Source of the DNA: Vicugna vicugna
Lineage: Eukaryota
Assembly: GCA_013265495.1 (NCBI GenBank)
Contig: MU057744.1
Coordinates: 372,001-436,000 of the forward strand
Reading direction: 5' to 3'
DNA length: 64,000 nt
Below the pieces are notes generated by a model. It saw nothing but the letters and a program-made list of their open reading frames with translations, had not been told where the DNA came from and did not search any database. The position numbers were made by a program, and so were the translations under genes. Shown here piece after piece: positions 9,118 to 49,661 of this stretch. Within the stretch, counting starts at the first letter, position 1. The number at the start of each line of letters is the position of its first letter.

Positions 9118-9240
<123 letters not shown>

Positions 9241-9577: not shown

Positions 9578-10060
<483 letters not shown>

Positions 10061-10589: not shown

Positions 10590-10715
10590 TTTCCCCACCA
10601 AAAGTTAGGCCCGTCCAGATTCTTGAGGGCAATTCTGTTAAAAACGGCTTCTAAGTCTATGTAACAGTCATCATCTGTCTTCAGCAACAAATCGAAATCG
10701 GTTGTTTCCACGGTC
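10590..10715 (-). CDS. B3GALNT2: B3GALNT2 exon 9 (GT31-family DDD metal-binding motif)
   Basis: aacag| ... GAAA|gtaagt; [41 protein letters not shown]; 126 bp. Confidence 0.97.
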
Positions 10716-12334
10716 CTGTTGGCGAAAAGGGGGATGAGAGTCAGTACGTCCCTGCAAGGAGACAAAGGCACGCTGACATGACCAGCTTCTGTTCTTCCAG
10801 GGTCGGGAACGCCTGCGATAACAGGACACTGCTGCGCCCAGCTGCAGGCCTCACTTTGTCTCCACTGAGCAGCCACGCCGGTTTTAGAAGGTATAAAGGG
10901 AAAAAACACTGAAGATCTGGCTTAGTGGAACATAAAATCTTAAGCACATCTGAGAGACATGTGAACTGGGCCCGGTGTTCTCAGGATGAGGGGACAGGTG
11001 TCCCCCGGCTCACACAGAGAGCTGCGGAACGGCAAGATGGGTCTGTGCTGCTGTTCGTGTGACACTCAGTTCATGGTTTTTTACAAAGTTGAGTTAACAC
11101 ACTGAAATGCATTTTCCCCTGGAAACGGTTTCTAGCTATTCAGCTACTACAAATGACCTTCTGGAAGGCACAAGAGGGTGATTCCATTTATCTAGACATA
11201 AAAAAAATATACAGTGGCAACCAGAGACAAAACTGACTCTTTCATTTCCCATCGCCAGTCCCTGTACCTCTTTGTTTCAAAAACCCAGACTCTTGCTAGG
11301 GAACCAGTCAGATGACAGAAATATGAATTAAAGAAATCGGGAGAAAGTTTCACTAAGTCACAAAATGGTGAATTTACAAGTCCACAACAAAAAGCATAAC
11401 CCTATGTTTCTAAAGTTTATTTCAATTAACAGCATAATGCTAATAAGAAACAAACTTTTGTGATAAAGGCAGTGAGGCCACTGATGAGTTGACTGACTCA
11501 AGATGAGTGAATAATGACGGTCTCCTTTATGGTGTGGAGGGCAGATGGGGGTGGGCTGCTGGGAATCGGGTCCCAGGAAACAAGCTCACTGATAATTTAA
11601 AAAAAAGCCAAAGGCAGAGATGTAAACATACTTTATAGGTTTGGTCTGGACAGAGAAGCAGATTTCAGTTCTGCTGTCAGGGTGGACAGCAAATGGTAGG
11701 GCCCTAGAGGAGCTCAGCAACATTAACAACTAAGTATCCAGTGAGTAACAGTTACTGCTACTTATGTCGTTGTTGGCATCATTACAAAGGTAGGAGTTAC
11801 ACCTGCGACCCGAGACGCCTGGGAGGGTCGGGAAGTGACGGTGTGATGGCTCTGAGGGCTGAGGAATTTTATCTTGCATAAGCGTTCCGGGTTAGAGCGG
11901 GCAGAGTAAGTGGGTGGAGGAGAGAGAAGTCGGCTGTGGATACTCAGATGAACAGACTTGGGCCAGGAGCCTGAGAGCCAGTGACTAAATGGGGGACAGG
12001 GGTAGGGGTGACTGGGCGACAGTGGGCTGTTTTCACACTCACTGATTTTCGTCCCATGTGGGCCTGAGACAGCTACGGCCAGCGGGAATGACTCAAAGTG
12101 AATCAATTTCTGCCTCATTTGTTTTTGATAGATTAGTGTCATTCACACTGTGGACCCGCCAACCTGAGCAAGAAAATGGCAGCCTTTTAGATCAGTCCAC
12201 ACGAAGAACCAGGATCCGACAGATCACAGCCCAGGTGGTCAGGGCTCTTAGCTTTGTTTTTTTAAAAAAAAATGTCAGTGGCTTGATGTCGATGAATTCT
12301 TTCTACATCAGAAGAAAAATAAAGCAGCACCCAC

Positions 12335-12518
12335 CATCGATAGAAGTTCAGTAACTTCGCAGGGACGTTCCGGTAAGTGTCGATGACGTCCACGAAGACA
12401 ATGTCACCATGGAGGCGGCTTTCCTCCTTCAGCAAGGCGTCCTCTTCCTGAAGATTACTTATGTGGTCAAGGAGTCTTCGGGGGCGAGAATGAAGGTTTT
12501 TTAAGAGAGCGTCACCTT
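12335..12518 (-). CDS. B3GALNT2: B3GALNT2 exon 8
   Basis: ccttttcag| ... ATG|gtgggt; (E)[60 protein letters not shown](W); 184 bp. Confidence 0.96.
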
Positions 12519-13869
12519 CTGAAAAGGAGAAGAGAGTTTGAGAAAAATGCTATAGCAAACTTAAGACTCAGAACTTACAACACGCTGTGCACTAATACCC
12601 AGCAGAAGTACAGCTGTCCGGCTCCGGGAGGCAGGGACACAGGAACTGGGCACATGGCTAGCGCGAGGACAAACGGGCATGCTCCCTCTGGAGAGCGACG
12701 CCTCAGCTCCTCGCTAGGCCGGGCTGAAGGCGTGCTGGCGACGTGTTAAGTCCACGTGCAGATGTGGCCCTAGACACTGTGTGTGCCACGCTCACAAGGA
12801 CACTTACTGCAGCAGCGTTACTGACAGCAGGAAAATGGAACTGGCCTAAGCGCCCAGAGACAAGGGCTACACTGTGGTATGTTTACGTGAGGGAAACACA
12901 GCAGGTAAAAAACCTAACCCCATCTCGCATGTGAACAGCGATGGCACCGAAAACCAATGCTGAGCGAGAAAAAGAATCTTGTCAACTGAAACGTACATAT
13001 GATACCACAAATTATAAATGACAAAGTACCAGAAACTCCATGGGATGAACGTACACGGGTGGTGGAAGGCAGAAAACTAAGAACAAGAGGGCACATGGGA
13101 ATTTCAGGACAGCGGGGTCCCCTCGAGGGGAAGGGAGAGGGACAGGGCGGGGGAGGACTGGGGGGGCTTCGACTGTTTCTAGAATGCTTTTTCTCTGAAA
13201 AAAAAAGGAGGCAAATATGACAAAATGTAAATGTGTGAATTCTGCAGCAAGCACATGGGCGTTCTTTGCAGCAGCCCGTCTGGTTTATCTACAGTATCTT
13301 GTAACACACATGGCTACCGTGTGCTTCACAGACAGTTTAACTACCGCCTCCTGAGCTGCCAGTCACTTGTCATGTTTGTGGAGGACTAGCCTCATGAGGC
13401 AGCTCTTTCTCTAGGGCAGGGCTTTCTCAACTGTCTCAATCAAATTAGGAAGTTTCTGAATAAAAAGTGGCCGAGGGCTGGGGAAAGGAAACTGGGAGGG
13501 AACGTGGCGTGCTGCTCTCTACGCCTCATACCTGCAGACAGGCTGGGGCTGGGGGCGGGGAGGACCTGTATTTGATTTCCACCCCCGCCATGGTCTGCGA
13601 GGTACGGGACACATGGCACGTTTCTGGGCCTCAGTATTGTCACCTGTGAAAGGAGGAGCGGGGCTCCATCAGTGGCTCCCTCAGAATGCTCACTGAGGTA
13701 GAGATTCCTAGGCCCCAGGCCTAAAGATGTAGCAGGTCTGGGGTGCAGCCCAGGGAGCTGTGTTTCTAACCTGGGACTTTCCTGTAACTTTGCTGCAGCT
13801 ACCCTTGAGAAACACAGGCCTAAATGACCTTGGGTCCCTTCCAACTCTTACACTCAACTGTGGCGTCTT

Positions 13870-13988
13870 CACAGCTCAGCAGTAGAGCACGTGCCTAGCA
13901 CACACAAGGTCCTGGGTTCAATCCCTGGTGCCTCCTCTAAAAATAAGTAAACCTAATTATCCCCTTCCCCCCAAAAAGCTAAAAAAAT
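13870..13988 (+). mobile_element. tRNA-derived SINE (Vic-1-like), slightly 5' truncated
   Basis: agctcagcagtagagc (A box) ... ggttcaatccc (B box) ... taaacctaattatcccc + A tail. Confidence 0.8.
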
Positions 13989-15660
13989 CAATTAAAAATA
14001 AGGATAGATATACACAATTTAACACCTGAAGGAAAGAGAATGTTACAAAACTGCAGTAATAGGAAAAGGGTTGATAACAAGATCAGATGAGAAACTAAGT
14101 ACAGGCTTTTTCATTCACCAGTTGTACGTTTTGTTTTGTACTAACGCACGTATCTGAAATGTGTGAGTATACAGAAGTACGTCTGCGTGTGTTTTAAGTC
14201 TGATCATCTGTCCAGGTGCTATTTAAAAGAATCGCATGGTTACAGCCTCTCAAACTTCAAAGGCATCAAATCCATTTAGGGAACTTGTTAAAATACAGGT
14301 ATCTGAGCTCCAATCCTGAAGATTTTTAACTCTGTAGGTTGAGGTAGGGCCCAGGAGAGACACCAACGCCCAAGAAAATTTGAAAACTTGTGTACCATGT
14401 GATTCTTCTAAATACCATAGATCCTCAGCTTTTTAAAAACTTATATACAGATTTTCAGATATATCCAAGTACATGAGAAGAAAACCTATTCATTTAAATT
14501 CCCTTTACCCTAAAACTTGAGTTATTTCTCTCTTGTTTGAAAGGGATTGTCCTCAGACAAGGCTTAATCCATTGGCCTCAGTGAGAGAAAATTTATGCTC
14601 AACAGCTGTTTCAGGAACAGGAGCTGCTCCCTGTAGACCAGTTTGGTGCCGGAAGTCTCGAGGGCCCCTCAAGGTTTTCAAAACTCCTGACGGTACAAAC
14701 TTGAACTAACTGGCAAGAGGAAGGAAGCTGCTAGACGTTAAGTCAGATGGTGTGGTAGCACTTGTACCTGGCCCCCAAGAGTGGCCTGACCCCTCGTCTG
14801 AGTTCCCCAGGGCCCGGCCATCAGCTGGCCTCTGGTGAGCTACACTGATACCTTCCTTGACAGAGTGGTTTCACGGTTTTATGAAAAATCTCTGGACTAA
14901 AATTAAGGATCCCTAAATTTTTAAATCTCTTTTAATGGCAAGCTTGTGGGCAAAACCTAGGTACCTGTTCCAGCCTAGTATTAACGGCTGATCTAAGAAC
15001 AGAAATACTTCTAATGCAGAAACACTGGAAATAAAGATGCTAGAAATAAAAAAGCCACGGCCCATTCACATCCTCAGACTGCTGGCAGAGGCCTCGAACA
15101 GAGGGTCTGCCCACCCGCAGCTCTGCGCTGCTGAGGGAGCCCCCTGGAGACTCGCCTTGCAGAATCCGGCCTCTGCCTTCCCAGGCACTGTGAGCCTTTG
15201 GGGAAGCTGTCCTGATCCTTTTACAGGAACCCAGGATCCGCAGGGCTTTGCGAGCCAGAGAGAAGCACTGGGCAGAGCCTCTCTTCACCAAGTGATGACC
15301 AGGACACACGGCCAACAGCAAGTGTGCGGACAAGAGTTTTTCCTTCTGAAAGATGACAAGTGCAGAACTCGGGATTCGCAGATGCGGGGAGTAAAAGGAG
15401 CGTCGCTCGGGAAGACAAACAGCCACTTCTTTTTGGGGGTGATGGGAATGGTCTGGAGTTAGTGGAGAGGGTTGCAGAACTCAATATACTAAAAACCACT
15501 GACTCAAACACTTAAAAGAGGTAAATTACAGGGTATGTGAATTATATATCAACAAAACTATTACTTTCAATGACAAAAAAAAAATTACCCTTCATGTTCA
15601 GAGTATGAAGATTAGGTAGGTGAGAGTACGTATGCTTTTCGACTCAGCCAGCTGACTTAC

Positions 15661-15739
15661 CCTGAATAGTGAAAATAAAACCGCCTGCGACTCCCTCCGC
15701 ACCTTCCGTGAATTCATGGGGCAACGCCCCCTCCCCAGC
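15661..15739 (-). CDS. B3GALNT2: B3GALNT2 exon 7
   Basis: cctttcag|GCT ... CAGG|gtaagt; [26 protein letters not shown]; 79 bp. Confidence 0.95.
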
Positions 15740-17981
15740 CTGAAAGGAAAGAGAACAGAAGTGCTCGATGTTTCATTACTGAAGGTACACTTCTTATTTG
15801 TGAAAACTGAGTCGGCAAAACTCATCATGTGACTGGTCCACAGCACACAAAGCTGCCCAGGGTACTGGTCCACCAGGCAGCTCTGCCGCGGGGTGACAGC
15901 AGCGTTCTGCCACTCGCGCTGTCAACGACAGTGCCCACGATCTGGTCCAGCAGTCCAGACAGTGTTCCGAATTCCAACTCACATAGTCATGTATTCTTGA
16001 ACTTGCCACCGACAATATCACAAAGACTGATTTTATTTTACATCCTGGCCCCACCATGTGAAAAAATTATTGCCACCTTTGGTTTCTTGGAGATTGAAAA
16101 TGCCCGTGAGTTCAAATTCATCAGATTCCTCGAGGCACATGTTTAAACATCACTATTACCCGGCAGAGAAGAGCCCCTCCAAGCACACAGTTCAGACGAG
16201 CCCGATGACTCATGTTGTTGCAGGAGCCTGGACGTGCCTGTGCCCACTGCCAGCAACAGTCCCTCCTACCTCCTGGGGCTGGGAGACCCTTTGTGACCAG
16301 AGACTGACTCCTCCTCACCTCACCAGGCACACGATGCCCCGCCTCCGTGCTGCACAGCACTCATCCCACCGGCCCTGCCCTGGGTCTGGGTCTGCTTCAG
16401 CTCGGCCACGGCACTTCCTCCGCACACTCACCTAAGAGGGCCTACGGCTTGGCTGTTCCTCCTCTGAACAGATCCTTCTAGCAGAGCTGTGCTGCACAGA
16501 GCAGTTACTTCACGGCTGGGAGAGAGACAGCAGTGCTCGGAGGCCATCTAATTCCGAACACCCGGCAGCTGAGTGCAGAGGGAATCTCCGACGGTGAACG
16601 CTACAGATTCCAACCTTGCAGTCCCATAAAAGACTGCATGTGCATTTTAAAAATTGTACACTCTGTATTGTTTTGGCTTGTTTAGAACTTAACAGTACTT
16701 TTTGGTTTTTAACTTCTACTGAAAAGGTCACAGCCTGACTTGTCTTTAAAGTTTTTGTGACATCACTACTTGCTGGCAAGGGGCAAGACTTTGGAGAACT
16801 TTGGGCTTCATACATTTATGATGAAAACTTTTACTTATTTGCACATGGGTTTCTTAGAACAGGCTACTAAGTCATCTGCCTTTCTGGGGGTTAGCTGAGT
16901 GTGTAAGCTGTCTTTCGTCCTCCACAACCATATTCACCCAGAGCAGGTCCTGTGAATCTTTATATTTAAACCGAGCCCTCAATTCAGAAGTGAACTGATT
17001 TCCTTTTGTGCAGCCAACTAAATATTACAGAATTCTGGCACATTTTGGACTTTTTAAACTTTCATAAACAGAAAAGGAAGCAAGATATTAAAGGCTTTGA
17101 AAATAAGGAAAGAAAAAAAACCCTAATTCCATAAAATATTGTATCTTAAATAAACGACTTTTCATAAAATCAAGGATGAAATCCTAAACCTGGCCTTCAA
17201 GGCTAAGGTTGTAATTATCCATGAATCTGTGGGTCTTTTTTCCTCACTGGACTGTAAGTTCCACTGTGGGCCAGTCCTGGGCCTGTTGTGTCCACAGCTG
17301 CGCCTGGCTGACCACACGTGTGCACAAGTGTTTTCAAATTCAGGGGTTAATTCATGTGAATAAAGTTAACATCTAATGAAAATATACTGAGCTTGTGAAT
17401 TTAAATGCCAAGTGCTTCCAATGATTCTGTGACACCAGCACACACACCACTTGCTTAGAGCGCATCATTTTCAGTTTGCCTACACTTTGTCATCCTGCAT
17501 TTACTGTGAGAAACTTACCTGTCAAACTGTTTTAAATTTTAAGAAAATGTGGTAACTGAAAAATGTAACTCAGGAACCCCAGCAACGTCAGCGACAGGGA
17601 GTACTCAGGCTTACTTCCTGATGCTTTTCTCTGCAGTATTTTAACCGACATCATACCATCAAGGTGAGACCATGAATATTCTCAATACTGTACATAAAGC
17701 ATGTTGACTTAAAAACGATTGAGAAACAAAACACTACACTTTCTAAAACGCACTAATCTTAAGGCAAAACTATGTATTTACTCAGGTTGAAGTTATAAAA
17801 TCACAGAACATTTGAGTTTTTCATCTTTACTATGGTGACTCAACATTTTCTAGTACATATGTTGTAAAACACATAAGAGTCATTGTTCCATATGAGTTGG
17901 TACAAAAGTAAACTTAAAGACCCTTCCACATGTTAAAAAACAGGAAGGTCCGCCGCCCCCTCCCACAAAGGACTGACTCAC

Positions 17982-18092
17982 CGTAAGGACTCTGAGAACC
18001 CCTCCTCCGTCATTTACTGCCACCCTGTGGAGGTTCCTGGACACCAGGCCTTGGAGGTCTTGGCTCTCCCACACGATCGTACCTTCAAAGCT
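17982..18092 (-). CDS. B3GALNT2: B3GALNT2 exon 6
   Basis: cacaaaag|AGC ... ACG|gtgagt; [37 protein letters not shown]; 111 bp. Confidence 0.94.
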
Positions 18093-19400
18093 CTTTTGTG
18101 GAACAAGGTGAACAGTGAGTCAGTTTCTCTACTGCTGGCATGTAGGTTCTCAGCACGTCTTTGGAGAGGAGTTTTTCCTAAGACACAGATTCTTAGTGCA
18201 CGCTCTAACGCACCAGTGCTAACACTGTGGTGTGTGTCTTAGAGGCATTTTTTTTGTGCTCATCTAAAATAACAAAGACCAGTTTCACATGCTGCTGTCT
18301 GTCTTTGTCCACTGTCTCAAAGGCATTTCCTCACGCACCTGCAGCTGACCACTCCTTTCCAAGTGCTTGTAACAATGCCACTGAGTGGAGGCGTCCTGAT
18401 CCACTCACAGGTCCCTGCTGTCCAGCATTTTCAGGCTACCAGATACCTACTAAAATAATCCGAGGCATGTTCTGATGTAAATGTTTATTTTCCCCTCAAC
18501 GCTTTGTTTTTTTATTTAAAATAAATTCCCAAAGGTGAAATGACTGGGAAAGAACAGATATGTCGGATATGGATTTTAATACACATTGCCAACCTGCTTT
18601 TCAAAAGCAAATTACACTTGGAGGGTCATTAGCAATTTACGAGAATGCCGCTGCCTGTACTTGTCCCAGTGTGGGGTATTAGTCAAAGAAAAGAAGGTCA
18701 CGCCAATTTAGCAGATTTAAGAAATGGCTCCTCATTTAATTGGTGCGTCTTCTGATTTGTAATGATGTTTATGAATTACACAGTCTCTTCTGGGAACTGC
18801 CTTGTCATACTTCTTTGCCACGTACCTAGTGAGTTTTATGTTTCTTATTAATCCATTAAATTTATTTTAATAAATTATCTTAATAAGAATACTTTTTTCA
18901 GAATTGTCTGCCGCTTAATATGGCAGTTTTTTTGAAATTCAAAAATGCATAAATTTTATCTTGTCCAATCTGACAAGCTTTTCCTTTGTGATTATTACCA
19001 TTAAATTTGGAGCTTAGAAAGTTACACTCTGTGCCCCATATGAATTCCAGTGTCTCCTAACTTCTCCACAGTCCCACTTGGAGCATCTGCGCTCAGCTGG
19101 CTCCTCAGTGCCGCCAGGTCTCAGCTCACCGTCACCTCCTGGGGAGGCTTTCTCCACAGTCAACTCCCGATTTCTCTCTCACATCAGCCTGTCTTACTCT
19201 CTTAAAACCACTTACCACTCTTGACATTTATTTTTCTATTGTCAAATGGACTCCTCCCACTAGACTGCAAACACCACAAGAGCCATGATCTTGACTGTCT
19301 TACCAACCTCTATACCCCCAGCACCTAGCATGCCGGGCGTGTAACAGGCACTCAGATAAACAACTGAGTAAAATGGAACTCAAAATCCATTAGAATTAAT

Positions 19401-20020
19401 TCTGGGCATGTATCTGGAGAAAACTCTAACTCAAAAAGATACATGCACCCCAATGTTCACAGCAGCACTGTTTACAACAGCCAAGACATGGAAGCAACCT
19501 AAATGTCCACTGGCAGATGACTGGATACAGAAGTTGTGACCTATTTATGCAATGGAGTACTACTCAGCCATAAAAAGAAAACAATGCCATTTGCAGCAAC
19601 ATGGATGGACCTAGAGATGATCATACTAAGTGAAGCAAGTCAGACAGATGAATATCATATGATATCAACTTATATGTAGAATCTGAAAAAAAAAAGATAA
19701 TAAATGAACTTATTTACAAACCAGAAATAGATTCAGACACAGAAGACAAATCAGTTGCCAAAGGGGAAATGGGGTGGTGAGGTGAGGGATAAATTAGGAG
19801 TTTGGGATTAACAGATACACACTACTACATATAAAACAGATAAACAACAAGGACCCACAGTACAGCACAGGACACTATACTCAGTATCTTGTAATAATGT
19901 GTAGTGGAAATGAATCTGAAAAAGGATATGTATGCGTACGTGTAGCTGAATCACTGCTGTGTACCTGAAACTAACACAACATTGTACATCAACTACACTT
20001 CAATAAAAATAAATAAAATA
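19401..20020 (+). mobile_element. LINE-1, 5'-truncated (end of ORF2, 3'UTR, A tail)
   Basis: caaaaagatacatgcaccccaatgttcacagcagcactg...gacatggaagcaacctaaatgtcc; ends caataaaaataaataaaata. Confidence 0.9.
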
Positions 20021-21137
20021 ATCCTGGTATACAGCAGGAGCTTAACGATTCAGCTTCAGTTATTCTAAAAGCACTTCACATATTAAAATTAAAAGATAAA
20101 GGACTTTACAGTAATGTCTCCTTTAGCCAGCATTATAAGGAAACTATGCAAAACTGAAGCTGTCCAATTAGCTAGGTCAATGGTTTGCAAGGTTTTTTTG
20201 TTTTTTTTTTAAATAAAACTCCTCTACCAAAGATACAAACACAGAGACTCTGGACCCCTCGGGCAGTGTGCTGTTCGATGCTGACCTAACGTATCTTTGA
20301 ACTTCATGGTTTGGGACACTCCTGGTGGCCTCGGGCTCCTCAGAGCAGATCCTGCAGACATGCCTGGTGTCCGCATTCCCCAGCCTTTGAAACAGAGAAC
20401 GTCACACCCACCTGAGGGGCTGTTGGAGGATGACTGAGTGAGTGATGATGGGTACAGGGAGGTGTCTGCTCAGCAAGTACATGCAGCTTTCGTACCACAG
20501 ACGGACACAGGGTCAAGCGGCCCTTGGCAAGATTCCACTTCCTCATCTGGAACAGCGGCTGCTTATTTCTGTACTTCCCTGGGTGGCCTCAGCTCTTTAC
20601 TGAACTTGATGTTCATGAACCTCAATTCTTTTTGCAAAAACCAAGACGCATTCTTGCCAATAGATAAATACACAGAAGAATCAAAAAAGACCAGGAAGGA
20701 AGGAATACACCAAGAATGCTGGGCAACAGACGGGTGACATCATATCCTTTTAACTTTTCCCTATTTCTGTCAAGTTTCAACAGCGAATATGTATTACTTT
20801 CATAAATTTTCCTATTTTTACAATCAGGAAAAACATTTTTGAAACTAAACATATGTACATGACTAAACCTGAGGGTCAATCTTCTTTCAGACATGAGCCA
20901 TTATTTCAACTTTTGAGTGTCTTCTGTGCACCAGGCGGTGGGCTCTGTATCTGAAGACTGAAAGAAAAAAAGAATCAGCCGTAGCTTTCAGTAAGTGTAA
21001 CATGCCAGAAGAGGCTCCGCAAGGAAGGGAAGTCATTCTGCTGGGGGAGGTCAGACAGCATGTCTAAAGCCGGGAGAGCTGAGCTACGTCTTAAAGGAGT
21101 CTGAGTCAGAAAAAACAGGAGGTAGAGAAAATAACAC

Positions 21138-21799
21138 ATGAACAACTATATGGAAACAAACTGGACAACCTAGAAGAAATGGACAAGTTTCTGGAAACAT
21201 ACAGTCCACCAAGACTGAATCAAGAAGAAACAGACCACTTAAACAGACCAATCACTAGAAATGAAATAGAATCAGCAATAAAAAACCTCCCTACAAACAA
21301 AAGTCCAGGGCCAGACGGCTTCACTGGGGAATTCTACCAAACAAAAGAAGAGCTCATACCGATCCTTCTCAAACTCTTCCAAAAGACTGAAAAGGAGGGA
21401 ACACTCCCAAACTCATTCCATGAGAACACCATCACCCTGATACCAAAACCAGACAAAGACACCACCAAAAAAAAAAATTACAGGCCAATATCATTGATGA
21501 ACATAGATGCAAAAATCCTCAACAAAATTTTAGCAAACAGAACCCAACAACATATAGAAAAGATCATACACCATGATCACACTGGATCCACCCCAGGGAC
21601 ACTAGGCTGGTTCAGCACAGGCAAATCGACCAACATGACACACCACACCAACAAGAGAAAGGACAAAAACGACATGATCATCTCAATAGATGCAGAAAAA
21701 AGCATTTGATAAAATTCAACACCCATGTATGATAAAAACTCTTACCAAAGCGTGTATAGAGCAAACATATCTCAACATAATAAAAGCTATTAAAAAAAA
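21138..21799 (+). mobile_element. LINE-1 ORF2 internal fragment (Z domain and start of RT)
   Basis: ORF 21179-21709: [14 protein letters not shown]...[22 protein letters not shown]...MIISIDAEK. Confidence 0.95.
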
Positions 21800-22117
21800 T
21801 AGCATATGAACAGGCAGACCTGAAACAGCACTGCATGTTCAGAAAACTGTCAGGTAGTGTGGCACCGCCAAGGCGCCAGGCTGAGGAGGGGAGGGAAAGG
21901 GAGGTGGGGCTGGCCCTGCTGGAGCAGCCTGCCCCCTCCCGGAAGGCAGTGGGAAGCACGGAGCAGGAGGGCAACAGCATCCCACCTACGGCTTCAGAGC
22001 CGCCCTCCAATACCAGAGAGGCAGCACGCGGAGGCCGCGGGGAGAGCGGTAATGAGGCTATTTCAGAGTTCAGGTGAGAAGTCAACACCTGTCTTAGGAA
22101 TTAAGACTGCCCTCTGA

Positions 22118-23850
22118 GAAAGGAATGAAGACACAAATAAATGGGAAGATATTCCATGACCACGGACTGGAAGAATTAAAAACTGTTAAAATGGGGGGTT
22201 GAGCCAAGATGGTGGAGTGGAGAGACTCCGCTCGCCCACCCCCACAAACACATCGAGAATTACATCTACAAACCCATCAAATCGCACAGAACACCTACTG
22301 AACTCTGGCAGAGTGTCTCTTGCTTCCAAATACAGGATTCCTTACAAAATCCGATAAACAACAAGTTCATACGGTATATCACAAGGAACTATATTCAACA
22401 TCCTGTAGTCACTTTTGGTGAAAATATGAAAACAAATATATGTATGTTCATGTATGACTGAAGCATTGTGCTGTACACCAGAAACTGACACAACATTGTA
22501 AGTGGACTAGACTTCAATAAAAACAAAATACATATATACAAAAAAATAGCTTTTGAGGCATTAAAAAAACTTAAAATATCCATAAAACACATAGAACCTG
22601 CAGATTAAGTTTAATCCCTATCAAAATTCCAATGGCATTTCTCACAGAAATATTACAAACAATCCTAAACTTTGTGTGGAATCACGAAAGACCCCGATGG
22701 CCAAAGCAATCTAGAGAAGAAGCACAAAGCTGGAGGCATCATGTGCCCTGATTTCAAACTATACTACAAAGCTGTAGTCATCAAAACAGTACGGTGCTGG
22801 CCTAAAACAGACACATAGAGCAATGGAACAGGACAGAGCCCAGAGATAAACCCAGGCATATATGGTCCATTAATCCACAACAAAGAAGCCAAGAATATAC
22901 AATGGGGAAAGGACAGTCTCTTCAATACACAGTGCTGGGAAAACCGGACAGCCACACGTTGAACACAAATGAAAGCGGACCACGAACTCATGCCACACAC
23001 AAACATCAACTCAAGATGGATTAAAAGCTTGAACGTAAGACCTGACACCATGGAACTCCTATAAGAAAGCATAAGCAGTAAGCTACTTGACATCAGTCTT
23101 GGGTATGACTTTCTGAATTTGACACTAAAAGCAAAAGCAACAAAAGTAAAAATAAACAGGTAGGGCTACATCAAACTAAAAATCTTCTGCACAGCAAAGG
23201 AAACCATCAACAACTTGAAAAGGCAACCTACCATATAGGAGAAAATATCTGTGAAATCATGTATCTGATAAGAAGCTGATATTCAAAGTACATAAAGAAC
23301 TCATACAACTCAACAGCAAAAGCCAAAGAATCCAATTTTAAAAAATGGACAGAGTATCTGAATAGACATTTTCCAAAGACACACAGATGGTCATCAGGTA
23401 CATGAAACGGTGCTCAGCATCACTAGTCATAAGGGAGCTGCAAATCAAAACCACAATGAGATGTCACCTCACACCTGTTAGAACAGCTATCATCAAATAG
23501 ACAAGAAATAACAAGTGCTGGTGAGGATTGTAGAAAAGGGAACTTTTGGGCACTGTTGATGGAAATGTAATTTGGTGAAGCCACTATAGAAAAAAGTTTG
23601 GAGGGTCTTCAAAACATTAAAAATAAAACTAACATCTGATCCAGCAATTTCACTTCTGGGTGTTTACCCAACAGAAATGAAAACATGATCTCTAAAAGAT
23701 ACCTGAACCCCGTGTTCACTGCAGCACTATTTACAACAGCCAAGGCAGGTCAGCAACCTAGTCTTAAGTGTCCATCAATGGATGAATCGTTGAAGAAAAT
23801 GGCATATCTATATACAGTGGAGTATTACTCAGCCATAAAAAGAATGAAAT
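22118..23850 (+). mobile_element. Decayed LINE-1 ORF2 3' half, interrupted by an insertion at 22193-22563
   Basis: Typical L1 motifs (aaagctggaggcatc, ggacagtctcttcaat, caaatcaaaaccacaatgag, tattactcagccataaaaag) with many stops and frameshifts. Confidence 0.9.
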
Positions 23851-25396
23851 CAAATCCTAATGATTAATATTTAAGAGGAAAACAAAAGAGGAAACAAAGT
23901 ACAGGGAAGAAGACCAGGCCAGATGAAGCTGAACCAGAAGAACGGACATCGTGCGAGCTGAGAGAAAACCGCAGGCCCCCAGGGCAAGGAGTAAAGTGTC
24001 CCCGGGAGTTGGCAGCAGGTCTCAGGAATCTTAGTGACTGTAGTGCCAAATGAACCCTGCCAGAGTAAGAGCCATAGGGACCAAATCAAAGCTTCGCCTG
24101 GAAACTAGAAATCTAGCAAGTATGATGAAGGACAAGTAACTCTCTGTCCGGTCCACTCAGTTGACACCTGGCACCTGACTGCCATTTCTCCTGCCCAGCA
24201 CCCAACTCCATTTTGTTTGATGGGGTCATGATTAACATCAACAGTGTTGACTAGATTGAGTAATTACCAGAAAAACTCATTGGCCAAGAAAGTGATCCTG
24301 GTTTACTCACTCCATTTACATCATCCACCAGCTGTTCTGTTATTAGGGAAGGGAGATGCTCTGTCCTCCCCAGCTCTCCTGCACCTGCTCTGTGTCAGTT
24401 AAATTTCTCCTTCCCACTTCCTTTCTTACAAGCCTGCTTTTTCCTTCCTGGTACAAAGTCATCACAAAGCCAGGAATCTCTGCAGATGTGAAACAACCTG
24501 TCTGTGGCAGTTCCCTGCTAAGATCACAGAACCACAGTAAAAGGGAGAACACAGCATGGTACAGGTTGGGAAAATGAGTGCCGCCAAGCCCTGTCCCCTG
24601 TGACAGAAGCAGCTCGTGCTGTTCATTCTTCTGTGTCTTACTCCAAATAAGCATGTAAGTACCCCTAACGCTAACAAGAACGTCTTTTGTGACTCAGGTT
24701 GAATGAAAATAGTCTTTTTCTTGAAATCAGTCTCAGGTGCACCACTAAGGAAAATATGAAATTAGAGAAGTAAATATTTTAAGCAAAACACACAGCAGTC
24801 TCCACTTAAGCCTGTGACCCCTGCTGAGATTTACGCTCTAGTGAGTCACAGAGAAAACACCACAAGAGACCTGCTCAGCGGACACGTGTTCCTCCAGCGG
24901 CCTGTGAGGTGTGGGGGGCAGGAGATGACGGACGTGCCATCTGCCTCTCCCCCTCGGGTGGGGTGATCGATCTGTGTCTCTCCTGCCGTCCTTCGCTGAC
25001 AACAGGCCAACAGGCAGGCAAACCCACCCCTTCTCCACTTTCATTTCTCTCTGTGCAAGTCAGCCCACTTAGGTCTGATGCAGCAAAAGTGACTGTCCAT
25101 GCGAAATCAAACGCAGTTTCAGCAAAAATAGGATTTTGTGTAAAAGGAAAGAATATTTTATGTTAAAAAGTTTATTTTTTCTTTTAATAAAGCTAATACA
25201 TATTTACTTCAGAACATTTAGGAAATAGATACCCAAAAAGAAGGAAATGAAGATCCATAATCTTACTCCCTCAAATGGAGACACTATTAAATAACTGGGT
25301 GTTTATAAAAGAAAAAAGCATTACTCAGATATAATGAGAAATCAAAAGCCAATGTAGCTTAAAGCTCAAAGGGAAATGAAGATCAAAAGGCTATGT

Positions 25397-25833
25397 GAAA
25401 AGACACCTGCACCCCAGTGTTCAAAGCAGCACTGCATACAGGAGCCAAGACATGGAAGCGACCTAAATGCCCATCGAGAGGTGACTAGATGAAGAAGTTG
25501 TGGTATATTTATACGATGGAATACTACTCAGCCATCAAAAGAATAAAATAATGTCATTTGCAGCAACATGGATGGACCCAGAGATCGTCACTCTAAGTGA
25601 AGTAAGCCAGAAAGAGAAAGTATCATATGATATCGCTCATATGTGGAATTAAAAAAAAAAAAGACACTATGAACTCATCTACAAAACAGAAACAGACTCA
25701 CAAACCTAAACAATCTTATGGTTACCAGGGAAAGGGGGTGGAAAGGGATAAATTTGGGAGTTTGAGATTTACAAATATTAGCCACTATATATAAAAATAG
25801 ATTTTAAAAAGTTTCTTTTGCATAAAAAAAAAA
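25397..25833 (+). mobile_element. LINE-1 3' end
   Basis: aaaagacacctgcacccc...gaagtaagccagaaagagaaag...3'UTR, A tail; degenerate TSD atca(a/c)aaggct. Confidence 0.88.
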
Positions 25834-26317
25834 ATCACAAGGCTGTAGCCAGTACAAGTCTTACTAATGTAAAAGGCCGCCCCCTGATGTGGCCGAGTGT
25901 CCCCTCAGCAGTGCCTATGGCCACGTGTACCATCCTCAACACTGGCAGGGAAGACAAGCCCTTGCCCCAACCTAGTTTTTATTTTCATAAACATCAACCC
26001 TACAAAAAACCTGAAGATGAACACCCAGACACTGAAGGCAGCCACTGGCCACGTGTGCTTTATTTCTGTCCGTAAACAGACTTTTCTGTTCGCTGTCGAA
26101 TCATTTGAAAGTAAAATGCATTTCACCTTTACTTCCTAAGGACAAGGACATGCTGACAGAAGGGTAGTATTTCGTTGTGAACAAAATCAAAAACTGTAAT
26201 TCTCTCTGTGAGGCTGACTGAGATAACGGAGTAGACCCCGTAAAATTGTGATTAGCCTGAAGTTAAGGTTAAAGCTTATCTCTTCCCGCGCTGCCCCACA
26301 CTGTGACTCCTTCCTCT

Positions 26318-26529
26318 TCGAGTTTCTCATCCGAGGCACCCCTGGCCTCTTGGGCCGTCACTCTTTGCTGTGGGGACTGTCCCGTTCAGGGGAGGCTGCT
26401 CAGCGACATCCCGGCCTCTCCCCACAAGATGCTGGTCCTCCTCCACGCCCGGCTGCAACAGCTAAGCGTATCTCCAGACACTGCTGAGTGTCCCCTGGGG
26501 GCAGCCTGCCCCAGGCGGGGAAACACGGC
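26318..26529 (+). mobile_element. MER20-like hAT non-autonomous element
   Basis: tttgctgtggggactgtcc...cagcgacatcccggcctctccccacaagatgc...tctccagacactgc...tgtcccctggggg. Confidence 0.7.
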
Positions 26530-27303
26530 TCTTCAGGAAGAGGAACTCCGCATCCTCAGTACCAGCAGTAACAAGGACGGCATATACCTGTTTACTGACC
26601 GCCTGCCACAGGGCAGCACGTTCTCAACATTCTACATCCATTCAGTTGTTTACTCCCTGAACAACCCTCTGAACTGGGTCCCTGCACAGAGGAGGAGAGA
26701 GACACAGTGGGGTTAAGCAGCCTGCACAAGGTCACAGGGCCACTGAGGGGCAGAGCAGGGACCCACATGCAGCCCCGCTGCACTCACAGGTGTCCGCCCT
26801 CATGCATTTAACTCCCAGGCGCGGCGGGGCTTCCCGTCCTGCTTGGGCCAGTCCTCGGACGCTGTCCATAAAGACCAGCCCGACAGCAGCTTCAGACCTT
26901 TCCGACTGTGCCCGACACTAGGCTAGTGCCCCCAGTCCTCAGAGTCCCAGGCTCTCCCCTGGGTCCTGCCCACGCTGCCTCTCAGTAGAAGAGCTGGACT
27001 CTCACCCGTGACTTGCTTCAATCCCAAAGAAGCCTGCTGACCAGTCAGTGCAGACCTCTGCTTACAGCTCTGCCGGGGACGCAGTAAGTTACAGCAGGGC
27101 CATGTCAGCTCTTCCTCCCCGACTCTCACGAGCTGCTTTAAGGGCAGGGATCTTTGAACTATGTCATTGTACAGCCCCGGTGCTCTGCACAGACTCAGCT
27201 CTCAATAAACAAGTCAACAAACCAAATGGCTTCCTTCAAAAACAGATCCAACACTTGGCCAATGCTACTTAGTTGAGCCACTATTCTTAACTAAGAGCTA
27301 CCA

Positions 27304-27394
27304 GGGGGAGGGTACAGGTCAGTGGCAGAGCACGTGCTTAGCATGCACGAGGGCCTGGGTTCAATCCCCAGTACCGCCAATAAAGAAAAACAAA
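27304..27394 (+). mobile_element. tRNA-derived SINE (Vic-1-like), short form
   Basis: ggggagggtacaggtcagtggcagagc...ggttcaatccccagtacc + A-rich tail. Confidence 0.85.
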
Positions 27395-27712
27395 GAGATA
27401 CTTTTGATAGTACATACTTCATTTAACAAAGAAAAAATTCATATATGAGATTTAGAAAGGATATAACACGAATGGCATTCTCATATAATGCTGACAATTA
27501 CTCAGATTGATTAAAAACTGCTAACTGTCCTCGAGAAACAAATCCTGTGCCTCAAAACTGTGTATAAATTTGAGCCAACAATTCATCCTGATAACCACCA
27601 TGTACACAAGCATGTCAGGACGCTCACCACAGTCTTTTTTATAACTGAGAAACTGGGAAATTTTTTACAGTATGTTTTAGTTCTGCTTTTATTTCACATT
27701 TCAAAAAAATAA

Positions 27713-27834
27713 TTTTTCTTTTTTTTGAGAGTAATCAGGTTCATTTATTCATTTATTTTAATGGAGGGACTGGGGAGTGAGCCCAGGACCTCGTGCACGC
27801 TAAGCACGCGCCGTACCAGAGCTACACCCTCCCC
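27713..27834 (-). mobile_element. tRNA-derived SINE (Vic-1-like)
   Basis: Reverse complement of the same family, with poly(T) at the left end. Confidence 0.85.
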
Positions 27835-28577
27835 TACTATTTCACATGTTTTTAAACAGAAGTTCACATATAGGTGAGACAAAGGAGCTCCCTTTGACAC
27901 TTATGGAATTAACACATAGTTTAACTACTAGTACTCAGCTCCGGAGGGCCACAGCATGTTATAAAACGTGTGATTTTGCTGTTGCATAAACATGGACAGC
28001 ACCCCCTCCCTCCCCACGAAGGGCGGCAGGAAACTGTGTCCTGGTTAGTGCAGGACCTGTCCACCATCGAGCTCTCGCATCTTAACTCAGCTCCGATACT
28101 GCCGGATGAGCCCCAGCGCTGAGCTACAGTGACCACCAGAGATGACCGGGAAACTGACCCCCACTGCGGTTCCAAAGCCCTGGGCTCAGAACTGCCCTCA
28201 GACTAGACCGGAGCAGCCTGGAAAGCCCGAGGTTGACGGACGAACGATCTGTAACACACTGGGACGCAGCCGCATTCCGGTTAACTCCAGGCCTGATGAG
28301 GGCACCTGGCAGCTGAGATGGTCTCCAGCACACATCTCCTTAAGACTGGACCGAGAGCTACAGTCTTGTTTCAAATATCCTCCACATCTCAGAGTAGTTT
28401 TATTAACCCTGGAGATGTGGCTGATCGCTCTGCTGTTATCTGTCTGCACTTCCCTCCACCCCGACGCCTTAGATCCCTAACCATCTGCTTTACTCCAGTG
28501 GCAGCTGTGTCTGGTCCATCAGCACACCTACGACTGTCCTTTGTCGTTAAGGCAGGCACGTAGTCCCTGGCCCACTA

Positions 28578-28958
<381 letters not shown>

Positions 28959-30189
28959 TCAGTCACAGCAGATGCAACGGGTTTCCAAACAGCTTGTGGC
29001 TCGGTCAGCTAAACTCTCAGTGGCCCCAACCATGGTTACGGACATGGTTCCACTGTGGTTTCGGAACCACATGGGTTTTCTAGTGCAATCATGGTTATTA
29101 AACAAAGATTTAAGACACGAAAGTTGTCAAAAAGTTCTAAGACACTAAATATATAACTCACATAACCTCAAAAAAAGCCACCTTACAATGAGGAGCATTA
29201 GGAGCAGTATAAATACAGTGTTATTAAATCAAGCCGACTACCAGGCTTAACCCCAGAGAGTTAGGAATAAACTGAAAGATTAGAGATTTCTACATAGAAC
29301 AGAGGTACCCAGGAATCTCCCTTCAAAAGCACCCTTTAGAAGAAAAAAAACAAAAGCGAAAAAGGGAACACAAGAGAGGGCTGACTGTCTCTGTCTGTTG
29401 TTTTCTTTGGGTCCTTTCTCCCTGTTTTAGGCAAGAATATCTCCTTATTCTCAAGCCTACTCTTAGATACCAATTTACCACAGGGGAAGCTTCTGTTAAA
29501 GCTATCAAGGCCACGCAGAAAGTCAGAATGAAGGGGGTTTTAATAAATTATGCATGTTTCTTTCATTAACATCAACTCTTGGCAATGCTGTGGTAAGACT
29601 TTTTACATGGTGACAACCTGTGAACCCAGAAGGGTCTACCTTAGATTACGCCTTTCTTGAGGACAAGGATTAACCTCTCCTTGGTTAAAAATAAGGCAGC
29701 TCAAAGTTAAATCAACATGATCAAAAACTACGTCTGAATCAAACCACTTGACCGAAAAGCACTGTGCATGGTTCAGAAAAGCCTACGTACACTACAATTA
29801 ACTGCCAAATTCAACACTGATGCTACTTGCTAGGTAAGGCTGACGGTGGAATTCAGAGTGCTGCTGTTCCAGTCACCTGTCTGAGCTTCGGTGTCCATGA
29901 AACCCTCAACCACAAGAATACACGAATGCAGGCACTTGAGTAACATGATACAGCTTTTCTGGCAGGAACCATCAGTGAGCGCTGCTCCCAACCTACATTT
30001 ATATTTATGTCATTAAGCACACTTACAAAAGACACAGGCTCTTTAGAGGACGAAGGAACAGGACAAACTGCAAACAAATTTAATCGTAAACTGATCTGTG
30101 TTTATCGCTGACTCTAATACTGTTATCCGTCAGTAGCAATCAATGTTAATAATACATAAACATTTTTAAAGATGCCTTAAAAAAACTGA

Positions 30190-32970
30190 ACAGAGTTCTG
30201 CTTCCAGGGATATAAAGTTCTCCTACAGATAGCAATTATGAACAGTAGATGAAACATTTTAAAAACTGATCTGAAGGCACTGGAATGCACACAAAGCAGG
30301 CAGAAACTGGAGGAAAATCAATACCAAGAAGATGAGAAAGACACTGGGTGCGTGTGTCCCCACTCGTTTTCTTTAATGGCTTTTTGTCTGAGGCACACCT
30401 CAGGGGGCTAACTAAACATCCGAAAAAAACAAACAAACAAAAAAGAAAGCTGCAGCCTTTCTGGCTACAAATCAGAAGACAGAGCAGTGGCAAAAAGATG
30501 AGCTAACAATGAGGAAGAAAACCCCAGAAAGGAAGGAATCATAGAGAAAGCTCTGAACTCTTCGTATAAATTCTATCCTTACCTGTGGCTGACTCAGAAA
30601 TGCACATTCAAAGAAGAATCCAAGTGCCCGCCGTCTAGGTTCAAATGAACAGAACAGAGATTTCAGCCACTGCCCATTGCAAGGAGACAGGACTGAGAGC
30701 CTGAGCCCAGCTAACTTAACTGCTACAAGAAACAAAAAAATCAACACTCCTCAAAGAATAAGAGGATGCAGAGATCCTACAATGAACCATTCACAATACC
30801 CAGGATACAACCCCAGGTTACTCGATATAAAACAGGAAAGTGTTACCATACTCGAGAGGAAAGGTAATCAATAAAGACAGGCCAAGATGACTCAGACTTA
30901 GAGCAGCAGACAGGATTTTAAAGCCGTTAAGCACAGTTAAGGTCAAGGCCATAGAGAACATATGTTCAAACTGAACTCAGAAAAATACAAAATTTAGAAA
31001 AACAGGAAATTTTGGAAAAATAGAAACTTCGAGAATTAAATGTAAATTTTAGAACTAAAATGTACAGTATCTAAAAAAAATCATTGGCTAGGCTTAAAAG
31101 ATTTGAGGTGACATAAGAGTCAGTAAACGTGAATATACATGGACAGAAATCAAATTTCAAATCAAATTTGAAAAACAGAGGGAAAAAAACTGAAAAAAAT
31201 GAACAGTCTTATGACCTGTGGGGCAATATGAAAAAGTCTACCATACATGTAAGTGGAATCCCAGAATGAGTGGGGTGAAACGGGTTAAGAAAAACCCAGC
31301 AAAAACACACTACTGTACAACACAACCAAATTGCTTAAAACCAGTACATATGAAGAGAAAAACTCAAGAGCAGCCAGGAGAAAACAAAACCAAACCCACA
31401 CTGCATACATCATACACCAGAACAACCACCCGAAGGCAGACTGACTTCTCTCCAGGAAACACAGAGGCCAGAAAACACGGGAGTGCTATCTTTAAAACAC
31501 TGGAAAGTAAAGAAGGCAACCCAGAATTTCAGTATCTAGAAAATACCCACAAAAATAAAGGAGGGGAAGAATAAAGGCAAAATAAAAACATTTTCAGAAA
31601 AATGAAAACTAAGCAAATTCATCACCAGCAAACTTGCACTGTAAGAATTAGTAAAGATTATGATTTGGGCTGAAGAAGGTATCAGATGGATATTCAGGAG
31701 GAATGATGAACAACAGAAATGGTAAATAAGTGGGCAAATATAAAAGATTTTTTTCTCTAAATTACTTTAATATACATTTAGCTTTTTAAAGCAAAAACCG
31801 TGGCACTGTCTCGTGGGGTTTATAGCACACAGAGATATAAGGCATACGATAACCAGAGCAAAGAAGACTGGGGGCGGTAAATTGGCTTATACAAGGCTCT
31901 TACATTTTATATGAAGTTATATAACATTAACTTAAAGAAGATCAAAAAGCTTAGGATGTGTACTGTAATTCTTATGTCAACCAGACACAAAAAATTATAG
32001 TACAAAGAGCTATAGCTAAAAAGACAACAGAGAGATTAAAATGGAATTCTAAAAAAAATCCAATTAACCCAAAAGAAGGCAGGAAAGGAGGAACAGAAAA
32101 ACAAAAAGTAGAACATACAGAAAACAAATAGCAAAATGAAAAACTGAAATCCAAACACTTTAATAATTGCATTAAATGTAAATGGAATAAACACTCCATG
32201 TAAAAAGCAGAGATTCTCAGACTGGATAAAAAGGAAGACCTAACTATATGTTGTCCACAAGAAACACAACTTCCAGCAATATATATAAAGAATAATACAT
32301 CACACTCAAGAGGAATACACGGTTGGATGAACACTCCAAAAGTTAATAAACGTAATTCATCACAGTAACAGAATAAAGGAGAAAAACGCTGGAAACATTC
32401 CAGATGCCCATCAAGACTAGATAAACGTTGTACATTGTTGGAATACAACTTAGCAATTCAAAGAAGGAAAAGGAAAAATGTACTGACACATACAATGACA
32501 TGGATGAATTTCAGAAATATTATGTTGACTGAAAGAAGCCTTACCCAAGAGAGTGCTTAGTGTATGACTCTATTTACATATGAAGTAGGATCCTACAACA
32601 GGCAAAACCAGTCAATGGCTGGGGAAAAAAAAAACTGGTTGCCTCCAGGGAATAAGATGAGGTGACAGGAGTTTAGATTACACAGATTTATAATGTTCAA
32701 AAAACTGAATGCACATTACACTGCATGTAAAATTTTAAAACCATAAACAAATATTAAAGCCTAGTTAATGATATGCTCACCAAAGTGTTCAGGGCTGAAG
32801 GGTACCGAGGCCTGCAACTTACTCTAAAATCCATTTTTTAGAAAAGACGGATTGATGAACGACCACAGATATAAAGGAAATACAGCAAACTGTAACTATT
32901 GTATACATCAGCTGGTGGATATATGGATGCTCACTGTGTAATTCTTTCAAGATTTACGTAGTTTAAAACC
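30190..32970 (+). mobile_element. Ancient, heavily decayed LINE-1 (5' region, ORF1, endonuclease start and 3' pieces)
   Basis: A-rich plus strand; ORF1-like remnants near 31200-31650; endonuclease start attgcattaaatgtaaatggaataaacactcc near 32165; old 3'UTR motifs at 32390-32950. Confidence 0.7.
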
Positions 32971-33456
32971 CAGAAACAGGTCTTCTCAAGTACAGTTCCT
33001 TGTTACACACCTTCAGATACACTCTGGGAACAATCACATTTCCCCAAACATCAGCAACAGTAACCCCAGTTGTTTTAAATTTTTATTCCCTCTACACCCT
33101 TATTACAAAAAAGGTTTGAAGCAGCTGTTAGTCTGTGTTATGGTGACAGACTTTTAAGGTTGGAAGAAAGAGGCAGTAATACTTGATTATACCTACAAGT
33201 CCAAAACTTATATTTATTATCAACTTGTGAAACTCTTTAGACTTTAGGGGATTGTCCAACTCCTCCTTCCCTAGATGTAACACATTTACTCATTGGTACC
33301 CTCTCCCCAGACCAGCACTGTAACACATTACACCATCATGTGTCTAATCGACAAGGAAGAAAGGTGCAAGTCTCCCAACCTAATAATTGCCATGAGGAAA
33401 AGCTGACGGTTTTGAAAAAGAAAAATGGGGAAAAGCGTATACAAAGCAGTACATAC

Positions 33457-33650
33457 CTCCTGATCTGCCTGGTAAAGCTTGACAGTGATGTTCCTCTGGA
33501 AGCCCCCATCGCTGGCGTCATAAAACACCCCGAGACTGGTAATGACGATTGGATAGAGAACGCGGAAGCTCACGCTGACGACTCGGTCCTCGGAGAGCTC
33601 TGATGAAGTGTCTTCGGAAAGACTGAATGCTTCAATTTCCTGATTCAAAA
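33457..33650 (-). CDS. B3GALNT2: B3GALNT2 exon 4
   Basis: ttccgtag| ... GAG|gtatgt; [64 protein letters not shown]; 194 bp. Confidence 0.96.
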
Positions 33651-34184
33651 CTACGGAAGCAATGAGAAAAGGAGTCTTACATAAAGAAATACACTATTTT
33701 ATTTTACTAATATGAAGTAATGAAGTGGGCTTGATAGCAAAATCTAGATAATTATTTGTTATACAATTCTTTCACAAATGGCAATACATTTTTAAAATGT
33801 TTCAGAAATATGGCTGCTTCTGGGGCAGGGGGTAAAATTTGTTTTAAAATTTAAGAATGAAATTTTCAGCCACATCTAAGTAGAATATTTAATTATCAGA
33901 ACTACTGTAACAGATTTTTGTACACACACGTATGCATGTGTGTATACAAACGCTACAGGGAATATTAAATTTAAAGGCACCTATTAGGAAAGGCTAAATG
34001 GGAGTACTCACTGTAGTCATAAATAATGAGTAAATTCTGTCTTGTCTGCAAATTCCCAAGATCCTACTTCTTGTTGAGCACTTTTTGTAGTGTTGGGCAA
34101 TTACCACAGTACAAAAATAACAAATCACTTCAACACTGAAAACCTCTTGCTATATACTATCAATAAGAGATAAGCACAGCAAAC

Positions 34185-34395
34185 ATGGTGAGCATTTCTG
34201 ACCCCTACTTGGTGTTAAGTCCCAACACATTTAATTTTCACAACTACCCTATGTGGTCGTGACCTTATCTCCAGGTCACAGATTAAGACAATGAAGTCCA
34301 GAGACGTTAAGTAATTCGATCAAGGTCATAGGAAGTGGCAGAGCCTGGATTCAAATCCAGATTTACTGCCTTCAAATTTGAAACTCTTTCTATTC
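34185..34395 (-). mobile_element. MIR SINE
   Basis: cacaactaccctatg...gttaagtaattcgatcaaggtcata...gtggcagagcctggattcaaatccag. Confidence 0.7.
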
Positions 34396-35711
34396 CCCTG
34401 CAGTTGTCTAATCAAAGCCCAAAACACTTCTTTTCAAATAATTTTCTCAACTACCATAAACAGATCAGGAGATATTACATGAGGCACTTAATATGGCTGA
34501 GAATATCAGTGCCACCTTGAGAAATAATATAAAAACTTATTTTAAAAGATTATTATATCAAAGTTCTTTGTATTTCTTAGATCTGTGGTTTTCCAACTTT
34601 GCAGATCACACAACCTCATCAGTTAAAAACATTTGTACACATACTCATATTTATTTACAGAATATACACATTATTATCAGTTAATATATTCAATATTAAT
34701 AAAGATCACATTTTATTTTCAGATAATTTTATTTTCAGATAAACAGAAACTGTTTTCTTCCCACACCCCAGTGGATCATTTAGATCCCTAGAATGCTATT
34801 TTACACTTAGTGGATGCTCAATAAAATGTGACTAAATGGAATTGATGGCTCCTACCCAATTACATACATAAGCAGGAGGGAAAAAGGAGGATACAGATTT
34901 CATCACAGGCTGGGGAAGCACTGGCCGGAGAGTCTAGACTCCAAATACACTGGACAACAACAAAAGCTTTTCTCTTTAATATAGTCGGTAAAGAGGATAC
35001 CCAAGCTGAAGCATGTCTACTAGAGGCAGTAGGTTAAGCACATTATGACATGCAACCTATTTTCTATATAAAACAAATGTACCTTGAACTTCAAGCTCCC
35101 TGGACACAAGGGATCCTGCTGTTTCGACAATGCTATTAATCAGAACTTTGATACACCCTGAGTATCTTGATGACTAATGTTCATGATGACCTTAAGGTAC
35201 TGAAGGAAATCTAAATGCTATTTAAATCACCAAAAAGATAAAATTAGGTTCAATCTTAATTTAGTTATACCTATTTTAAAAAGCTGGTAACCTAGGTATT
35301 ACATATATGAAAATTTTCTATTAAAGAAAAGCTTCACTCCTTTACTATTAATGAATAGTAACATTTAAAATAAAAGTCTGGTTAATTTGAAGGTAAGGTT
35401 TCTTTAAATTTGGTTTGGTTTGGTTTTGGATTTCAAACATAATTTGTTCTAAGCTACTTTTACATCATTAGTAATACAGCATTTTGTTAGGTTCCTGATC
35501 CCTTTGGGCTCCCAGTGAAAAGCTAAAGGACTCTCTCCCCTAAAAAACACAATTACACACAAAATTTTAACATTGAATGATGTGAGCTAAATTCACAGAC
35601 CTCCTAAGTAAGAAACCTCTGCTGTACAATAGACCTGAAAATTATAGTCCCCAATTCATTAAAAAAAAAAGCTGATTGAAACACAATTTATAAAAAGACA
35701 AGTTCCTTAAA

Positions 35712-35948
35712 ATAACAATAAACACTTATCATGTCCCAGGAATTATTCTAAATATTTTACATGTATCAACTAATTTCATCATCATGTCAATCCCTTACGA
35801 GTAAGTACTTTTACCCCAGTTTATGGAAGATGAAACTGAGGCACAGGGGTAAATAACTCTTTGAGGGTCATACAGCCGGAAAATGGCACAGCCTATACTT
35901 AAGCCAGGAAGCCTGACTCCAGAGCCCAAGCTCTTAACCACTATACTA
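35712..35948 (-). mobile_element. MIR SINE
   Basis: MIR core gatgaaactgaggcacag...ggtcatacagc...ctgactccagagccc...cttaaccact. Confidence 0.8.
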
Positions 35949-37489: not shown

Positions 37490-37527
37490 TATATGGAGTC
37501 GCAGGGCTGAGGACAAGGAAGACTCAC

Positions 37528-49634: not shown

Positions 49635-49661
49635 ATTTTTTTAAGTGTGGGAGGGTAAAAA

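Follow-up and report, generated by a model that had tools for sequence, protein, structure and literature searches.

The window analysed here, by which the whole 64-kb stretch of DNA is meant, contains the coding motifs of B3GALNT2 on its reverse strand. One of the exons matches the Vicugna pacos protein at 100% identity and Camelus proteins at 95–97%, which assigns the window to a South American camelid. A ~370-nt insert (22193 to ~22564), in which the head of an L1 5'UTR is joined directly to an L1 3' end, lies antisense to this gene, in the intron between the exons located by coding motifs near 28.9 kb and 18.1 kb. As far as B3GALNT2 is concerned, nothing points to a function of the insert, which is one old antisense intronic insertion. 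The features of the locus are as follows:

7562..54385, reverse strand: B3GALNT2, span of detected coding motifs, with exons between 54.4 kb and 7.6 kb
22118..22177, forward strand: upstream portion of the older L1 ORF2 segment that hosts the insert; aligns to a paralogue near 46640–46700
22178..22192, forward strand: left target-site duplication (TSD), beginning at an L1 endonuclease-type site
22193..22353, forward strand: L1 5'UTR head, 161 nt, 50% GC, with a G run at its start; putative exon 1
22354..22546, forward strand: L1 3' end, its last 193 nt, directly after AG in paralogues; putative exon 2
22547..22562, forward strand: 16-nt non-L1 spacer between two A runs
22563..22577, forward strand: second A run and right TSD, 12/15 identical ungapped, or with a 2-nt deletion
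22578..23850, forward strand: older host L1 ORF2 segment, part downstream of the insert; 77% identical to 46705–47784 and matching other L1s of the window

An initial sequence-only reading of this DNA had described an older L1 interrupted by an element that starts at 22193 and is flanked by a degenerate TSD. Both observations held. Without the insert, the flanks make up a single older L1 ORF2 segment, which aligns without a break to its paralogue near 46640–46840. The two TSD copies (22178–22192 and 22563–22577) agree in 12 of 15 positions without gaps and in 14 of 17 if the preceding TT is included; in a window-wide control, a 14/17 match 370–400 nt downstream occurred at only 3 of 9043 positions. 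The target site, TT/AAAAA on the top strand at 22176–22182, is of the L1 endonuclease type. Judged by the decay of its TSD (12/15), the insertion is old. Eighteen of the 22 listed sequencing runs, representing four organism labels and six studies, contained 0.65–0.79 of the words from 21700–22700, while a share of at most ~0.59 would be expected if the insert were absent. At most, this hints at the presence of the insert in the best-matching runs, the best of which may be the source itself. Further upstream, an L1 ORF2 piece at 21095–21790 carries a 204-residue open frame with the Pfam domain RVT_1. Non-L1 sequence of ~330 nt (21790–22117), located where the reverse transcriptase core would be expected, lies between this piece and the host L1 segment.

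The insert opens with a G run at 22193, followed by a YY1-type motif, CAAGATGG, at 22205. The L1 3'-end homology begins at 22354 and includes AATAAA at 22516. The succession of an A-rich tail, a 16-nt spacer and a second A run, also noted in the initial reading, was found as described: the first tail is decayed and ends at 22546, and the second A run (22563–22569) continues into the right TSD. The 17-mer 22547–22563 has no second match with up to four mismatches on either strand of the 64-kb window; the spacer probably represents transcription that continued for a few bases beyond the 3' end of the source element.

No ORF1 or ORF2 sequence was detected in 22193–22562 by window comparison, by profile, or by a Pfam check of the open frame. 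A single frame is open across the insert; it has no Pfam match, and a search with the translation of this junction-crossing frame gave no credible homologue. Its sole match in the representative set, a six-fold repeated insect reverse transcriptase fragment, was rejected. There is no tRNA call in the insert and no Rfam match near threshold in 21000–24000. An RNA polymerase III type SINE was thus discarded, the head being an L1 5'UTR and not related to tRNA, 7SL or 5S RNA. The RNA folding score of the insert (z = -2.0; 3 of 100 shuffles as good) was uninformative, as was a bacterial promoter scan.

The origin of the 3' part is clear from the window itself. Positions 22354–22546 are 72–78% identical to three L1 3' ends near 19.8, 40.0, and 50.8 kb and score 118 bits against their profile, in agreement with the earlier view that the last ~190 bp are an L1 3' end shared with other copies in the window. 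In all three of these copies (3/3), strong homology starts right behind an AG. Two further L1 copies of the window, 25398–25810 and 61528–62090, end in A-rich runs near the start of the 3' part, the last 190 nt being absent from both; the terminal ~190-nt L1 block therefore looks like a separable module.

Nothing else in the 64-kb window resembles 22193–22353. One metagenome scan with a 25-nt motif yielded five L1 5'UTR loci (L005–L009) on contigs of 1.0–1.4 kb without ORF1. These loci are GC-rich, differ in their upstream flanks, and are 84–85% alike over 0.7–1.2 kb. Since they are much less similar to the insert than to each other, they probably belong to another host. In blastn comparisons, the head of the insert matched four of them over 73–89 nt at 75–81% identity and L007 over 35 nt at 89%. 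Local alignment scores of the head were 100–122 for four of the five loci, with shuffle maxima of 62–67; L007, which lacks the head, scored 62.5 against a shuffle maximum of 61. A profile built from these loci with the exception of L008, which was omitted because of an internal duplication, matched 22201–22330 (envelope to 22350) with 43.9 bits and an E value of 1.9e-15. The duplication in L008 is a tandem one of ~40 nt at ~291–372 of the oriented locus, upstream of the donor site discussed below.

The published giraffe consensus L1-1_Gir (PMC8620236, supplement file 2) begins with sequence that is, by eye, clearly homologous to the head, which identifies the head as the start of an L1 5'UTR. 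The sequence-only reading had called this part 5'UTR-like and had made its case dependent on a match to L1 5'UTRs; such a match now exists in the giraffe consensus and in the metagenome loci, and the only correction concerns its length, which is 161 nt and not ~155. These 161 nt are all that is retained of a 5'UTR exceeding 1 kb in relatives. The YY1 site proposed for this end is present as a motif, with GGTG in place of the GGCG of L009 and the giraffe consensus; this difference is likely due to CpG decay. Taken alone, the 9-nt motif is no more frequent in the window than expected by chance: at one mismatch it occurs 14 times, against an expectation of 18.4.

The relatives of the head also indicate where it ends. 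In all five metagenome loci (5/5), the 5'UTR continues as G/GTAGGG past the position at which the insert leaves it. The first G/GTAGG lies 164–168 nt from the head in L005, L006, and L009 and 211 nt from it in L008, the locus with the ~40-nt duplication. In the multiple alignment, base 22353 of the insert falls on the G before GTAGGG. The homologous site of L1-1_Gir, identified by eye in the supplement of PMC8620236, reads GAG/GTAGGA after nt 163. Two shorter giraffe versions given there, L1-1A_Gir and L1-1B_Gir, both leave the parent sequence exactly at this nt-163 donor, and both resume where the parent has AG just before, L1-1A_Gir behind a long pyrimidine tract (these comparisons were made by eye and not computed). 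The breaks in these two versions imply that the donor gives rise to retrotransposed L1 versions in another artiodactyl. The switch from 5' to 3' sequence, placed at ~22350 by the initial reading, is confirmed as a transition to L1 3'-end homology, and the switch point itself is most likely 22353/22354. The junction is most likely a splice junction, with its GT and AG read from relatives and not from the camelid parent L1.

Several observations count against splicing. The acceptor looks weak, with only 8–10 pyrimidines in the 22 nt upstream of AG in the three window copies. A plain donor-consensus count ranks the site first only in L009 and places it below the top four in the other four of five loci. 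Finally, a two-template breakpoint scan over 15 template pairs (L005–L009 combined with the three window L1 3' ends) gave means of up to ~14 for breakpoints at 22327–22346 and of 6 at 22353. A second comparison gave the same preference. The 5' templates of the scan match only 21–25 of 41 bases in the preferred zone.

The zone preferred by the scan is one where the 3' template can supply A-rich bases, as would be expected if the junction arose from a single template switch in the course of target-primed reverse transcription. ORF2p acting in cis would then have copied ~200 nt of a full-length L1 RNA and jumped at short A-rich homology to the 5'UTR. This origin would fit the weak acceptor and would make a trans step unnecessary, and internally deleted L1 insertions do arise in cultured cells, as stated in PMC3414825. 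On the other hand, the jump would have to fall by chance no more than ~26 nt away from the donor where the two giraffe versions leave their parent, and a later change would be needed to account for the CCG before the 3' part. We consider such a switch unlikely. The AAAAT microhomology previously reported at the junction is indeed present and is favoured by the scan with distant templates. However, by eye, the giraffe bases before the donor share with 22328–22353, in this order, ACAG, ATT, CTT, CAAAA, and the final G. The A run of the insert can therefore come from the 5' template, given that the giraffe 5'UTR has CAAAA just before the donor.

The coincidence with a splice donor also weighs against the insertion of a full-length L1 followed by the loss of ~6 kb through genomic deletion at microhomology. 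Both ends of the insert are complete, as such a deletion would leave them, and the age of the insertion (TSD 12/15) would have allowed time for it; no remnant of either ORF was left behind, however, and this course of events appears very improbable. The earlier interpretation as an internally deleted non-autonomous L1 thus stands with regard to the combination of 5' end and 3' end, the absence of ORFs, and the L1-type insertion with TSD, but is weakened with regard to deletion at a microhomology, as the junction coincides with a GT donor of related L1 5'UTRs and an AG in the L1 3' end.

The reading we favour, with a probability of about 0.78, is that a spliced L1 RNA, which read 16 nt past the tail of its source and was polyadenylated, was inserted by ORF2p in trans. 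An L1 RNA would have been spliced from a GT donor ~160 nt into the 5'UTR to an AG ~190 nt before the 3' end, a step that would remove the rest of the 5'UTR, ORF1, and ORF2. The resulting short polyadenylated RNA would carry the 16-nt read-through from the source locus. Reverse transcription at the TT/AAAA site by the ORF2p of another L1, presumably in trans, would have created the TSD. Directly observed elements of this scheme are the anatomy of the insert, its TSD and target site, the origin of both halves, a GT donor at the corresponding position of related L1s, and the breaks of two giraffe L1 versions at this donor; the camelid parent L1 is inferred to have had the same donor and acceptor. 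With both ORFs gone, the insert depends on proteins supplied entirely in trans. The preference of L1 proteins for the RNA that encodes them (PMC3414825) counts against this step, since ORF-less L1 RNAs should move rarely as a result.

With respect to the source of the spliced RNA, there is about an even chance that it came straight from a full-length L1, making the insert a dead-end product. Derivation from an earlier mini copy is possible but carries a lower likelihood; one locus cannot separate it from a full-length source. Compatible with the splice origin, and counted within the probability given for it, is the existence of a self-propagating non-autonomous family, an L1 SIDE, whose mini copies, with the 161-nt head or host promoters driving their transcription, would be recopied by L1 proteins. 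The insert keeps an intact 5' start and 3' end, as a member of such a family should, and its tail, with a decayed first part, a spacer and another A run, may reflect a genomic source copy with an aged tail. A full-length source explains the double tail equally well, however, and human SpIREs lose promoter activity and are termed dead ends (PMC5860796). A self-propagating family of this kind is a tentative proposal. In its full form it would state, again with some doubt, that an ORF-less mini-L1 of ~370 nt arose in camelids through a donor conserved among cetartiodactyl L1 5'UTRs and has become a non-autonomous family of polymerase II type that propagates itself. The sequence-only reading had held that multiple copies with the same junction would reveal a SINE-like family. 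This does not follow: repeated splicing of ordinary L1 RNAs is expected to yield identical junctions in the absence of a master copy, so that a shared junction alone does not demonstrate a SINE-like lineage.

No second copy with the junction of the insert was found among the metagenome, viral, and prokaryote collections scanned. All that the metagenome scan returned were the five L1 5'UTR loci, none of them with the junction, and plasmids gave no match to the insert. The junction pattern had no matches in viral contigs and four bacterial ones in genome contigs, all limited to 21–23 nt; its gapped form had one and two matches in the two collections, none with extended likeness. All seven loci (7/7, all patterns together) were rejected as chance matches. 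The head pattern gave 0 matches in the viral and prokaryote collections. A control pattern from the tRNA-derived SINE of the window also gave 0, and because this SINE is abundant in the window, the blanks in these two collections are uninformative as to copy number and probably reflect an absence of camelid DNA.

The literature searched, mostly titles and the beginnings of abstracts, contained no ORF-less L1 spliced from 5'UTR to 3'UTR and no camelid mini-L1; Belancio 2006, Repbase, Dfam, and the supplements of PMC8605555 and PMC5872511 were outside this scope. Searches for motifs of the insert had no result in main texts and in the supplements of PMC5381506, and two DNA motifs had 0 matches in the supplement files of PMC5203782 that were covered.

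The closest known counterparts of the insert are the SpIREs of human L1 (Larson et al. 2018, PMC5860796), of which 131 copies in three classes are reported. In SpIREs, a 5'UTR donor is joined to a downstream AG, a makeup that the relatives suggest for the insert as well. Shared with the insert is an L1-type insertion with a TSD of ~6–25 bp, poly(A), and a TTTT/A target, all of which it displays. Like the insert, they often lie antisense in introns. In the SpIRE classes described there, splicing stays inside the 5'UTR or reaches into ORF1, and ORF2 is retained, whereas the insert lacks both ORFs and measures only ~370 nt. It is thus most likely an ORF-less variant that works as SpIREs do but falls outside the described classes. 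SpIREs are not always dead ends, as one is reported to have been revived by a host promoter (Law and Burns 2026, PMC13174262).

The giraffe versions L1-1A_Gir and L1-1B_Gir (PMC8620236) have in common with the insert a homologous head, the break at the same G/GTAGG donor, and AG before the point of resumption. Unlike the insert, they pick up again within the 5'UTR and agree with the full element at 99.7% elsewhere. In that paper they are termed large 5'UTR deletions, and the string 'splic' has 0 matches in its main text. In our comparison by eye, they look like unrecognised SpIREs.

Bipartite ORF-less LINE derivatives, including SIDEs (Eickbush 2012, PMC3414825; Kojima 2018, PMC5786205), likewise combine the 5' end and the 3' end of a LINE, contain no ORF, and are described as moved in trans, as the insert would have been. 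The insert differs from them in its proposed origin, by splicing and not by DNA deletion, and in self-propagation, which in its case is only a hesitant suggestion. According to PMC5786205 and PMC7245038, such derivatives are reported for RTE, Ingi, Vingi, and R2 only. L1 was named in 2012 as having no SIDE, and its cis preference was offered as the reason (PMC3414825). HAL1 (half-L1) is also a non-autonomous L1 derivative with both ends; it retains ORF1, while only 161 nt and no ORF precede the 3' end of the insert.

If the splice reading is true, the germ line allows trans mobilisation of an L1 RNA that has lost both ORFs, and L1 can undergo splicing of its whole body, of which humans show only milder forms. 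The reading would also extend SpIREs beyond primates and bears on whether they are always dead ends. The giraffe versions, as far as their published sequences go, suggest that the same donor made unrecognised spliced L1 families in a second lineage. If a self-propagating family exists, splicing and not DNA deletion would be a route from L1 to a SINE-like parasite, and an L1 SIDE, so far listed in PMC3414825 as unobserved, would have been encountered.

Other repeats of the window include about ten copies of a 130-nt tRNA-Ala-like SINE (at 13.9, 27.3, 27.8, 38.1, 49.0, 49.5, 49.7, 52.5, 56.8, and 62.8 kb), six of which were called as tRNA-Ala by ARAGORN. This SINE is probably the camelid vic-1, a name that SINEBase gives for camels (PMC3531059). 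A camelid repeat survey (PMC8605555) assigns nearly all SINEs to MIRs and does not mention vic-1; this survey is therefore not a complete catalogue. The window also contains near-perfect tandem duplications of ~153 nt (96% identity; 41765–42069) and 74 nt (97%; 929–1077), and a 72-nt near-palindrome (92%; 59360–59430).
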